A stretch of DNA of 28,444 nucleotides. Origin: an uncultured Clostridia bacterium. GTDB lineage: Bacteria > Bacillota > Desulfotomaculia > Desulfotomaculales > CAZKPV01. Of the stretch, positions 2,056 through 21,980 are shown one piece after another. Position 1 is the first letter of the stretch. Each line of letters starts with the position of its first letter. The stretch lies in NCBI GenBank assembly GCA_964554735.1, contig CAZKPV010000005.1, positions 1 to 28,444 on the forward strand. Reading direction: 5' to 3'. The notes under the pieces were generated by a model. It worked only from the letters and a program-made list of their open reading frames with translations, had not been told where the DNA came from and did no database searches. A program made the translations under genes and the position numbers.

Positions 2056-2205
2056 TGGCCAAAAAAGCAGGTAATGTGTTGATTGTGAAAAATTAATGTA
2101 AGTTTCACCCAGATAATCAACACATTAGTTAACATTTTGGCCAATTATATCCGTTATGTAACATTGATGTCAATCTTACCCAAACATTAGTTGAAATTTT
2201 GGCCA
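2056..2205. repeat. Palindromic/direct repeat array in the fliP-fliQ spacer
   Basis: TGGCCAAAA-N7-TAATGTGTTGATT (2056-2084) is inverted against AATCAACACATTA-N7-TTTTGGCCA (2115-2143). An inner GTGAAA/TTTCAC pair sits at 2085-2090/2103-2108. Direct repeat ACATTAGTTaAcATTTTGGCCA (2122-2143) / ACATTAGTTgAaATTTTGGCCA (2184-2205), period 62. Confidence 0.8.
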
Positions 2206-19507: not shown

Positions 19508-19539
19508 AAAACGGTAAAACGGTAAAACGGTAAAACAGT
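19508..19539. repeat. 8-bp tandem repeat (AAAACGGT)x3 + AAAACAGT
   Basis: Starts immediately after the TAG at 19505-19507. Confidence 0.92.
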
Positions 19540-19616: not shown

Positions 19617-19859
19617 AATTTCGTGTTTTTTGAGCAAAAATACAACTTTTACAGAAAAAAGATCCAGTCCGCTAGGAAATTTCGTGTTTTCTGAGCAAAA
19701 ATGCAGGTTATTTAGGAACATTATGGATGCGGGGCCATTAAGCGGTAATAGTTTTCATTAAATGGATGAAATTCTCGGTAAAAGCTGTAATTTTGCTCAT
19801 TTTCGTACCTAAATGTGGTTTTCAGGCAAATATCTTTGTAAAAGTTGTAATTTTGCTCA
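19617..19859. repeat. Mirror-symmetric four-copy repeat array, ~60-bp period
   Basis: Forward copies at 19631-19652 (TGAGCAAAAATACAACTTTTAC) and 19692-19713, inside a 24/25-identical 25-mer at 19617 and 19678. Reverse copies at 19778-19799 and 19838-19859 (GTAAAAG[C/T]TGTAATTTTGCTCA). Confidence 0.88.
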
Positions 19860-19986
19860 CCGCGTCGCAGAAAGAAACAATATTACCCCGAGCAGTTAAA
19901 AACACAATAAAAAACTAAAAAGAACAAAAAAAGGATGTAATTTTATTTATCCGACTGTAAAAAGGGCTTGGTGGCGTGGGTGGCGT

Positions 19987-20018
19987 AAAAAAGGCACCTA
20001 ATGGGGGTGTTTGCCTTT
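19987..20018 (-). terminator. Probable Rho-independent terminator of the DUF559-like gene
   Basis: The minus strand reads AAAGGCAAACACC-CCCATTA-GGTGCC-TTTTTT: a GC stem with a 2-nt bulge followed by U6. Confidence 0.6.
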
Positions 20019-20056
20019 CGCCCCTCCTGTGTGTAAAGGGAATAAGGGATGATAAA

Positions 20057-20953
20057 TTAAGTGGAACCTATTTTATCGTCATTGGCGTGTCCACTATCAG
20101 CGCGGATGGAAGGAAGCAATTTTCGAAGAAGATAATTCCTCTGGTAAAACTTGCCTGTGCGGATTTGTATGCGTTTGCCCAAGCGGCGGGCTAGATTGTG
20201 GGCAAAATCAGCAAAATCATCCTTGTTATACAATTGGATTGTGCTTAAATGCATTACATTAATGCCTTGCTTTTCGAGTATTGCCGACCGCATCATATCC
20301 CTACCTTGTTCGGCAGGGCTGTTATGAAAAGCGAAACTATCATATTCTACCGCAAGCCGTTTGGATTGGTAATATAAATCGGCAAGGCATCGTTCCTGCC
20401 TAAGGCGGGTGGCCCCTTTTTTGTCTAGCTTAATTTCTTGGTTAAAAGTTGCTCCGCCTAAGCCAAACCCTCCCAGGTAGTTAGGTAGGGTTAGCAACAT
20501 GTACACTAATGACTCCATAATGGAGGCGGAGCCATCTTGCACATATTTAACCGCCCGCAAGGATTTTCGATGTCCGCGGTGGCCGGATGTTTTAGCAAGA
20601 AATGTTGTAAGTTTCCGCTTTGTTGTAAGTGCCTTTGTGGGATTACCGGGCGGATGTGAGCAAAGCTGCAAGCCAAGCAGTATGTGGCGATGCACGCTTA
20701 GTTTTGATGCCAACTGTAGAAAAACCAACTCGGGCGAGGCAACAACTTCACCGTTTTTCGATACAAGTGCACCCGAAGGAAGATCAACTGTACAGGTAGA
20801 CACAACATGATTGCCCTTGATATGCCCGGTTTTCCTGTCGGGAACAGTGATGTATACGGGTAGGTCTTTATTTTTTTCAAAGCCCAACACCGTTTGTATG
20901 TAAGGAATATTCCAGTAAAATGCGGCTGAGTAACTACTTAGATAACTTTTCAT
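20057..20953 (-). CDS. DUF559/Vsr-like PD-(D/E)xK nuclease-domain protein with an AbiEi-like N-terminal region (298 aa)
   Basis: SPELVFLQLA, SASIMESLVYMLLTLP...GGFGL, ADLYYQSKRLAVEYDSFAFH and DMMRSAILEKQGINV match the pattern of DUF559-family proteins as recalled. Start set at ATG 20953 (MKSYLSSYSAAFYW) from promoter geometry; the upstream extension runs through a tandem repeat. Confidence 0.7.
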   Translation of the reverse strand: MKSYLSSYSAAFYWNIPYIQTVLGFEKNKDLPVYITVPDRKTGHIKGNHVVSTCTVDLPSGALVSKNGEVVASPELVFLQLASKLSVHRHILLGLQLCSHPPGNPTKALTTKRKLTTFLAKTSGHRGHRKSLRAVKYVQDGSASIMESLVYMLLTLPNYLGGFGLGGATFNQEIKLDKKGATRLRQERCLADLYYQSKRLAVEYDSFAFHNSPAEQGRDMMRSAILEKQGINVMHLSTIQLYNKDDFADFAHNLARRLGKRIQIRTGKFYQRNYLLRKLLPSIRADSGHANDDKIGST

Positions 20954-20959
20954 ACTGGA

Positions 20960-20988
20960 ATTATACCCAAAAGTGAGCAAAAGTGCAA
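20960..20988 (-). promoter_or_regulatory. Sigma-A type promoter TTGCAC-N17-TATAAT, probably giving a leaderless mRNA
   Basis: -35 at 20988-20983 and -10 at 20965-20960; only 6 nt to the ATG at 20953; no Shine-Dalgarno. Confidence 0.75.
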
Positions 20989-20995
20989 CTTTTAC
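20974..20995. repeat. Fifth copy of the array motif (TGAGCAAAAGTGCAACTTTTAC)
   Basis: 20/22 identical to the reverse complement of 19838-19859; overlaps the -35 box. Confidence 0.85.
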
Positions 20996-21055
20996 GTTGG
21001 AACCCTGGCCGTGGATAAACAAAATAGCCAGGGAAGCAAGATAAAATGTTCCCCG

Positions 21056-21116
21056 GCAACGACCCGCAACGACCCGCAACGATCGGCAACAGACCCGCAA
21101 CAACCCACAACGAAGG
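21056..21116. repeat. Degenerate 10-bp tandem repeat (GCAACGACCC)x~6
   Basis: GCAACGACCC GCAACGACCC GCAACGATCG GCAACAGACCC GCAACAACCC ACAACGAAGG. Confidence 0.88.
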
Positions 21117-21137
21117 GGTTTCACTCGAATGATTTTC

Positions 21138-21980
21138 CTAAAACTCCACCACCGTGCCCGCGTTATTGTCGAAAAACCTGTCGCCAAACTCCTTGGCCAT
21201 AACCTCGGCGGCCCGCGGCCCGGTACAATGGGAAACTCCTATTCTTTCCACCCCCATGGCCTTGGTTTCAGCGATAGTGTGTCCAATTTGTTCCGCACCG
21301 GCTCGGAAAAGATGGGTTCCGCCCACCACGGCGTGTATCTTGTCGATACCGGTAATCTCTTTTGCCCGGATCAGGGTGTTCACCATTCCGTGATGGGCAC
21401 AGCCCAGTACTACCACGAGCCCCTTTTCGGTTTTAACCACCATGGCCTGGTCATCCCATAGGGGATCGGGCACCATCTTCCCGTCCTTTTTTACATACAA
21501 ATTGCTGACAACGGCTTCAAAGGGCATCTTCAAAGGAACCTCCCCGGTGGTTACCACGCTATCGTTTAGCCAAACAGGACCCTTGGCCATTTTGAAATCA
21601 GCACCGAGTCTCCTCAACTCATCCCTGCTGAAAGGCACGCCGATATAGTGGAAAATCTCCTTGCCGTTATCCGGCCGCCCGGAATACTTTTCTTCCCACA
21701 TGTCCGGGTGACCGTAAATCGGCATATTTTTTTCGGCTACCCCAAGAAAGGCACGCAACCCGCCGGTATGGTCATAGTGGCCGTGACTTATAACCACCTT
21801 GTCCACAGTTTTCAAATCCACCCCACACGCCTCGGCATTGGCCGTGATTAAATTGGAAGCCCCGGTGTCAAACAATATCTTTTCCCCGCCGGCCTCTATC
21901 AGGATACCCAATCCCCATTCACCTGTCACGCCGGAAATGCCCGCAGTATTCTCGCAAATAGTAGTCAATCTCAAAATCAT
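21138..21980 (-). CDS. MBL-fold metallo-hydrolase (COG1237-like)
   Basis: GEWGLGIL, LFDTG, ISHGHYDHTGG (HxHxDH), GCAHHG, GGTHL, SHCTG. ATG 21980 follows a GGTGGAGGTG RBS. Confidence 0.9.
   Translation of the reverse strand: MILRLTTICENTAGISGVTGEWGLGILIEAGGEKILFDTGASNLITANAEACGVDLKTVDKVVISHGHYDHTGGLRAFLGVAEKNMPIYGHPDMWEEKYSGRPDNGKEIFHYIGVPFSRDELRRLGADFKMAKGPVWLNDSVVTTGEVPLKMPFEAVVSNLYVKKDGKMVPDPLWDDQAMVVKTEKGLVVVLGCAHHGMVNTLIRAKEITGIDKIHAVVGGTHLFRAGAEQIGHTIAETKAMGVERIGVSHCTGPRAAEVMAKEFGDRFFDNNAGTVVEF

Follow-up and report, generated by a model that had tools for sequence, protein, structure and literature searches.

A Vsr-type nuclease gene and phased arrays of its promoter site: a candidate selfish cassette in Clostridia

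A mirror array and a nuclease-like gene

The window, a 28,444-nt stretch of contig CAZKPV010000005.1 from an uncultured Clostridia bacterium, contains a gene for a 298-residue nuclease-like protein (20057–20953, minus strand) and five copies of a short site, four of them in a mirror-symmetric array downstream of the gene and the fifth over its promoter. On the left of the array, the outer unit (19617–19657, minus strand; site 19631–19652, with the minus-strand core TTGTATTTTTGCTCA) is followed at 61 bp by an inner unit (19678–19718, minus strand) whose site, 19692–19713, is degenerate. On the right, the inner unit (19773–19799, plus strand; site 19778–19799) and the outer unit (19833–19859, plus strand; site 19838–19859, core TTGTAATTTTGCTCA) are 60 bp apart, and the two halves are joined by a central segment (19719–19772) with the symmetry point near 19745. 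Both inverted pairs are centred on this point: the outer pair has 23-nt arms that are 96% identical with 183 nt between them, and the inner pair agrees at 16 of 22 positions, counted from the sequence. The fifth copy (20974–20995, minus strand) spans the −35 box TTGCAC (20983–20988) and 9 nt of the 17-nt spacer. A pattern search for sequences resembling GTAAAAGTTGTAATTTTGCTCA, with up to three mismatches allowed, recovered the copies at 19631 (−), 19778 (+), 19838 (+) and 20974 (−) and gave no match in a dinucleotide-shuffled control; the weak copy at 19692–19713 was found as a direct repeat, with 73% identity over 22 nt and 80% over the 41-nt unit (19617–19657 against 19678–19718). A preliminary description of the locus had listed the same five copies, and their positions, periods and centre were all reproduced by the repeat finder and the pattern search. 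Its placing of the fifth copy over the −35 box held in that TTGCAC lies inside the copy, but this hexamer shares only 3 of its 6 bases with TTGACA and was not called by a consensus scan. The terminator that it saw after the gene is likewise weaker than described: the short stem and U6 run downstream of the gene (19987–20019, minus strand) form a weak terminator-like hairpin of unremarkable folding energy (z = −0.9), and the scan made no call. It had also reported no obvious target-site duplication, and none was seen here either.

The public gene call for the open reading frame (355 aa, protein P0001; 20057–21187) begins upstream of the promoter. The true start is the ATG at 20953, because the homologues and the −10 box place it there. 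This −10 box, TATAAT (20960–20965, minus strand), lies 6 nt ahead of the ATG, which is a leaderless layout without a Shine-Dalgarno sequence. Among 76 homologous loci, a −10 hexamer stands just ahead of the ATG in 67 (TATAAT in 35 of those), its distance is exactly 6 nt in 59, and a Shine-Dalgarno-like sequence occurs in only 3. From the −10 spacing and the rarity of Shine-Dalgarno sequences we infer that the family uses leaderless mRNA from a portable promoter of the sigma-70 type. A −10 box was found 16–18 nt beyond the promoter-proximal site copies in 10 of 10 cases; beyond other copies it occurs at the random rate (4/75 in the homologous loci and 5/87 in the window genome). Two ways of reading the copies themselves as promoters were rejected, namely tandem promoters, as the array copies have no −10 boxes, and a Bacteroidetes-type promoter (TAnnTTTG), as the majority of copies have GAAATTTTG and the genome is from a member of Bacillota.

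The protein was modelled with AlphaFold2 from a 61-sequence alignment, with a predicted local distance difference test (pLDDT) score of 94; this model superseded an earlier one from 20 close homologues, which had a pLDDT of 63 and gave no match for the N-terminal domain. Residues 1–139 align to the C-terminal domain of an AbiEi antitoxin (6y8q_A, residues 67–195; Z 10.0, Foldseek probability 0.99) and to Rv2827c (1zel, Z 6.5). Residues 142–260 match the Vsr-type nucleases I-Bth0305I (3r3p, Z 10.2), Vsr (1cw0, Z 8.9) and NGO0050 (3hrl, Z 8.5), and the whole model matches Mycobacterium tuberculosis Rv2248 over its full length (E 4.5e-12, TM 0.55–0.60). The nuclease constellation D192, E203, D205, H210, D219 and R222 is entirely intact; D192, E203 and D219 do not vary within the 61 family sequences, H210 and R222 hardly at all, and the constellation is preserved in all four paralogues of the window genome. 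In Pfam, the protein matched only MTES_1575, DUF559 and DUF2726, the DUF559 score being under the curated cut-off; sequence searches of PDB and NCBIfam returned no matches, and none of the 61 family members matched the Pfam family AbiEi_4. As modelled, the protein is thus a two-domain one, in which an AbiEi C-terminal-domain fold precedes an intact Vsr/DUF559-type PD-(D/E)xK nuclease. The nuclease had been proposed at the outset and is borne out by the fold (Z 8.5–10.2 to Vsr-type structures) and the catalytic residues. Of the AbiEi-like DNA-binding region mentioned with it, the fold is present, but it is that of the C-terminal domain, which lacks a winged helix-turn-helix (wHTH), and no recognisable DNA-binding domain was found.

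The site and its gene across genomes

The window genome is a 1.88-Mb metagenome-assembled genome in 232 contigs. When all of its site copies were aligned, a 15-nt core, TTGAAAnTTTG-NN-CA, emerged within a site of about 22–25 nt, which is asymmetric, only the TG-NN-CA hexamer being pseudo-palindromic. Exact copies number 30, and copies with no more than one mismatch 88; the reversed control yields 1 and 20. Among the 88, NN is CA in 32, CT in 19, GC in 15, AC in 6 and TC in 5. The copies are intergenic and clustered in dozens of arrays, arranged as tandem runs at 60–62 bp or as divergent pairs that are often 135 bp apart and bounded by 25-bp perfect inverted repeats. Mirror arrays contain up to 3+3 copies; that of the window is an ordinary example from the CT class, with a centre that differs in sequence from the centres of the other arrays of that class. 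The intervening sequence is conserved between arrays of one class, but not between loci generally. The four intact paralogues of the gene are 48–66% identical, and the promoters of three of them belong to the three largest classes of gene-less array (CT on contig C5, GC on C137 and CA on C119). The most divergent paralogue, on contig C65, follows a tRNA-Leu gene, with the only serine recombinase gene of the genome at a distance of 4.7 kb, and may sit on an integrated element. A promoter remnant without a gene is present on contig C153.

One gene-less array of the GC class, with the GGCCA variant of the site, lies inside the flagellar operon of the window itself, in the gap between fliP and fliQ (2056–2205). 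It consists of a degenerate copy at 2056–2070 (−) and copies at 2129–2143 (+) and 2191–2205 (+); the plus-strand copies are 62 bp apart, and the layout is identical to that upstream of the paralogue on C137. The gap measures 375 bp here, against about 10–30 bp in most of 22 relatives from the same order. It also has a 19-bp tandem repeat (2207–2263). Within the region that includes both gaps (1985–2691), REP-like GGGACGTTCC hairpins lie on both sides of fliQ, and the fliQ–fliR gap is about 100 bp against about 10–30 bp in most relatives.

We then considered 80 homologous loci from Clostridia, Dysgonamonadaceae and Spirochaetales, 79 of which have more than 60 nt upstream of the start. The site lies at −35 on the gene strand in 41 of the 79, and the commonest layout is −159(−), −97(+), −35(+). 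Four-copy mirror arrays, or arrays flanking the gene on both sides, occur at some loci, and divergent pairs are far commoner than convergent ones. The spacings between neighbouring copies have their main peak at 62 bp (61–63) and lesser ones at 50–52, 39–42, 31 and 21 bp, and the tandem spacings fit whole turns of the helix (circular resultant 0.70 at a 10.4-bp period, n = 53 tandem pairs). Helical phasing combined with copies in both orientations points to duplex DNA as the functional form, and we regard it as firm that the arrays are phased duplex-DNA sites, neither promoters nor RNAs. The preliminary description had raised the alternative of an array transcribed as a structured RNA. Such an RNA, or an array resembling clustered regularly interspaced short palindromic repeats (CRISPR), would account for the nested inverted repeats, which could fold (as single-stranded DNA the window array forms a nested hairpin, z = −3.1), and the 60–62-bp period with partly unrelated intervening sequence bears a superficial likeness to repeat–spacer units. 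However, there was no Rfam match, no tRNA was found, and no cas genes were present among the open reading frames of the region examined; the copies face both ways about a centre at helically phased distances, those in arrays are without −10 boxes, and the 'spacers' are conserved between arrays of one class and unconserved between loci. We therefore give an RNA or CRISPR-like array almost no credence.

Only 2 genomes have the gene among 121 of the window's order, and again 2 among 162 of its class. Exact motif counts are 30 in the window genome and 5 in the other carrier, whose locus has the canonical layout, against 0–3 in the remaining 119 genomes of the order. This confinement of the enrichment to gene carriers excludes a host-regulator site or a general promoter element, and the motif follows the gene across phyla. 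One search returned 584 homologues at 55–65% identity, and the wider family of about 300 residues comprises 3068 cluster representatives. The hosts of the homologues are mainly Clostridia of anaerobic digesters, together with Dysgonamonadaceae and Spirochaetales, often with several copies per genome, and include the cultured Syntrophobotulus glycolicus DSM 8271 and Ruminiclostridium cellobioparum subsp. termitidis CT1112. Since the gene is found in few genomes of its own order and class yet in distant phyla, its distribution is patchy and horizontal. A phage collection contained no homologue and a plasmid collection one weak match only. No neighbouring gene is conserved, no neighbour family being present in more than 7 of the 80 loci; a partner gene that would turn the suggested defence module into a multi-gene one is absent. 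The two ways in which the proposed link between motif and gene might have failed, that homologues lack arrays or that the motif belongs to an unrelated host regulator, are answered by the arrays at homologous loci (41/79 at −35) and by the genome census. Site and gene are very probably partners, and that they form a conserved unit which travels horizontally is, in our view, firm.

The dinucleotide NN agrees within a locus in 52% of pairs, against 17% after shuffling. Placed on the protein tree, it has phylogenetic signal (25 changes against a shuffled mean of 32, with 50 labelled tips). A role for NN as a specificity code was rejected, since in spite of this signal NN changes too often to prove co-evolution.

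Short tandem repeats with units of 8–19 bp, many of them GC-rich and specific to their locus, lie just outside many arrays, including those of the window and of contigs C137, C144, C205, C19 and C61. In the window, four units of AAAACGGT (19508–19539) stand about 80–90 bp outside the mirror array, and a 10-bp, GACCCGCAAC-like tandem repeat (21051–21113) occupies the position upstream of the promoter where most homologues bear further site copies. Such repeats could be scars of an insertion or repair process.

Copies, ends and junctions

A complete 4.3-Mb genome (OW818679.1; loci L096–L100) has four copies of the gene that are 90–96% identical over about 1.3 kb, with discrete ends. The repeated unit includes about 325 bp ahead of the gene and about 108 bp beyond it, and contains no other gene. 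Three further copies are internally deleted with both ends kept, one of them retaining codons 1–103, and arrays are followed by truncated pieces of the gene. The recent copies have, at both junctions, an ambiguous direct repeat, TTCGTT..TTATAT. For the window locus, the flanks did not align to the nearest genomes compared, which share only its order. A manure-metagenome contig (run X4) is 91% identical to the window over 20553–21344, a segment with the 5′ part of the gene, the promoter, the 10-bp tandem repeat and the end of a metallo-beta-lactamase-fold gene.

These copies bear on the possibility that the arrays neighbour the gene merely by chance, as the sites of some host factor or as pieces of an ordinary transposon, either its ends or its miniature derivatives (miniature inverted-repeat transposable elements, MITEs). 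The site ends in TG...CA, as do many ends of DDE transposons, perfect 25-bp inverted repeats bound elements of about 165 bp, and a YhgA-like 'Transposase_31' gene is found 580 bp from one array. A chance neighbour would, however, hardly place the identical site at the −35 of the gene in distant phyla or make motif enrichment track gene presence. Furthermore, the unit repeated in the 4.3-Mb genome has this gene only, no transposase is a conserved neighbour at the 80 loci, no target-site duplication was seen, and, unlike insertion sequences and MITEs, the recent copies are without terminal inverted repeats or a clear target duplication. We consider a transposon or host-factor origin of the arrays highly improbable. 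The YhgA/Rpn-like protein in question (locus L126, contig C223, 81–998, minus strand), a PD-(D/E)xK protein with a DUF4351 domain about 580 bp from a mirror pair, is a second nuclease of the recombination-promoting type near the repeats.

The same contig provides a case of inversion. Segments C184:229–378 and C223:1575–1724 (loci L125 and L126) have both flanks in common at 96% identity, and the 150-bp segment between these flanks, which has perfect inverted repeats of 25 bp at its borders, is 100% identical in the two and oppositely oriented; it bears the extended −10 box TGGTATAAT (TGnTATAAT). The opposite orientations show that inversion has taken place between site copies, at least over evolutionary time. 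Mirror arrays might on this ground be invertons, in which the segment between inverted site copies flips and redirects an internal promoter, the nuclease gene being a passenger or accessory. The two loci diverge beyond about 130 bp of flank, though, and so are two loci rather than two states of one, and this orientation difference between paralogous copies is the only one. None of the arrays has a recombinase gene nearby, and the whole genome encodes just one serine and two tyrosine recombinases; no inversion joint was seen over the window array in Logan contigs of 2–5x depth; and the centre of that array (19719–19772) has no clear promoter. Nor would inversion switch the gene's own promoter, because its −35 box lies in the repeat itself. 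An inverton is, in sum, an improbable account of the arrays.

The main rival to a mobile element is a gene with operators and remnants only. A solitary, autoregulated housekeeping or defence nuclease, of a restriction- or abortive-infection-like kind, would spread by ordinary horizontal transfer; its sites would be operators, and the gene-less arrays decayed remains of former gene copies. The truncated gene fragments that follow arrays in the 4.3-Mb genome and the gene-free promoter remnant on C153 are what such decay would leave, the fold is akin to AbiEi antitoxins and to Vsr-type, restriction-associated nucleases, and the gene holds a stable position in the 91%-identical relative. Decay sits less well with 88 copies of the site (at most one mismatch) in dozens of arrays against four genes, and with an array in the midst of the flagellar operon, a place that an entire gene unit is unlikely ever to have occupied. 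Nor would an operator need as many as the 3+3 copies of the largest mirror arrays. A defence function likewise finds no toxin or methylase partner, no homologue in the phage collection and one weak match among plasmids. We judge this operator-and-remnant account to be rather unlikely.

A candidate selfish cassette and its relatives

Our favoured explanation, to which we assign a probability of about 0.5, is that a self-contained, single-gene selfish cassette is present in the region in one copy, together with one of its gene-less site arrays. Several molecules of the protein would occupy the sites from one face of the DNA, co-operatively, as AbiEi-family proteins do on 23-bp promoter repeats, and binding at the −35 copy would repress the gene. 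Action of the nuclease at or near bound arrays would then start recombination or gene conversion, by which gene-bearing units and gene-less arrays would be copied to new places, with the logic of repetitive extragenic palindromic (REP) sequences and their REP-associated tyrosine transposases (RAYTs), carried out by an unrelated enzyme. These steps are not equally secure. The encoded protein is probably the binder of the sites; we lean slightly towards autorepression by it; and spread of units and arrays driven by the nuclease is a tentative proposal.

Several observations weigh against the cassette. The protein has no wHTH or other recognisable DNA-binding domain by Pfam, NCBIfam or structure comparison, the −35 box of the window gene is itself weak (TTGCAC, 3/6 to TTGACA), and the most divergent paralogue (C65, 48% identity) is without the motif at its promoter. 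NN changes often and may therefore be a product of concerted evolution and not of recognition specificity. In the 4.3-Mb genome, neither terminal inverted repeats nor a clear target-site duplication mark the ends of the recent copies, and for the window locus the low-depth Logan contigs (2–5x) contained no empty site, excision or inversion joint, or bridging piece. Finally, the 91%-identical relative has the cassette at the same junction, and therefore the window copy has not moved freshly.

The closest parallel to the proposed cassette is with REP sequences, their inverted doublets and RAYTs, together termed REPtrons (PMC3116915, PMC3337134). There, too, an enzyme gene is flanked by a short repeat that is dispersed between genes as inverted doublets, and distinct paralogues of the enzyme are paired with distinct repeat variants in one genome. 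Here, sites stand on both sides of the window gene, and divergent pairs or arrays occur at dozens of loci. The REPtron-like element of the preliminary description is accordingly retained as regards gene-bearing units, many gene-less arrays and variants matched to paralogues, but not as regards the enzyme: RAYT is an HUH/Y1 transposase (IS200/IS605-like), whereas here a Vsr-type PD-(D/E)xK nuclease is joined to an AbiEi-C-terminal-domain-like domain. The repeats differ as well, REP being a hairpin-forming palindrome and the present site an asymmetric duplex of 22–25 bp in helically phased arrays. RAYTs are single-copy and mostly vertical; the gene described here is multi-copy, patchy and horizontal, and its part in mobilisation is putative.

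The promoters of AbiEi-family genes are straddled by 23-bp inverted repeats to which the encoded proteins bind, and the positive face of the AbiEi C-terminal domain has a part in DNA binding, in bending and in co-operativity (PMC7319586). With Streptococcus agalactiae AbiEi and M. tuberculosis Rv2827c (PMC7319586) the present system shares the C-terminal-domain fold, in residues 1–139, and multiple sites of about 23 bp, direct and inverted, over the −35 region of the promoter. It differs from them in that there is no N-terminal wHTH and, at the 80 loci, no adjacent AbiEii (DUF1814) toxin gene; a nuclease domain is fused instead, and the sites also form long arrays and occur at distant loci. 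The fold of that domain (Z 8.5–10.2) and its intact D...E-x-D...H are those of Vsr-like (EDxHD/DUF559) nucleases such as I-Bth0305I, Escherichia coli Vsr and YcjD. The present gene differs in that it lies outside any intron, intein or phage, encodes no known DNA-binding module such as a zinc ribbon or NUMOD, has no cognate methylase nearby and is accompanied by arrays of repeated sites. Free-standing homing endonuclease genes are similar in being solitary, self-promoted and patchily distributed; in the present family, gene-less units that keep both ends exist in the 4.3-Mb genome, and the phage and plasmid collections gave, as noted, no homologue and one weak match. The full-length predicted fold and the two-domain architecture are common to M. 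tuberculosis Rv2248 and the wider family, and Rv2248, being uncharacterised, gives no function.

A literature search found no published description of a repeat-plus-enzyme system of this kind. With less than even confidence, we suggest that it may be a new class of prokaryotic selfish DNA, in which a Vsr-type nuclease with an AbiEi-C-terminal-domain-like domain would act on phased arrays of its own 22–25-bp site and would multiply itself, along with gene-less arrays, through recombination triggered by cleavage. The element would be a leaderless 1.3-kb cassette that moves between phyla, and would form the Bacillota branch of a family of about 3000 clusters with its own repeat in each lineage. 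Repeats dispersed between genes are a common feature of bacteria, but the maker is known for few of them, REP/RAYT being the textbook exception. The present case ties a second enzyme family, unrelated to RAYT, to a repeat population of its own, on evidence that is unusually clean: the same promoter position across phyla, helix-turn spacing, enrichment with the gene and paralogue-specific variants. If the nuclease does bind and propagate the arrays, a class of unexplained repeats, in the Clostridia of anaerobic digesters and elsewhere, would be accounted for. A large family annotated as 'DUF559 / hypothetical', including the Rv2248-like proteins of M. tuberculosis, would acquire a function, and the system would provide a compact, sequence-specific DNA-binding nuclease with a site of 22–25 bp.

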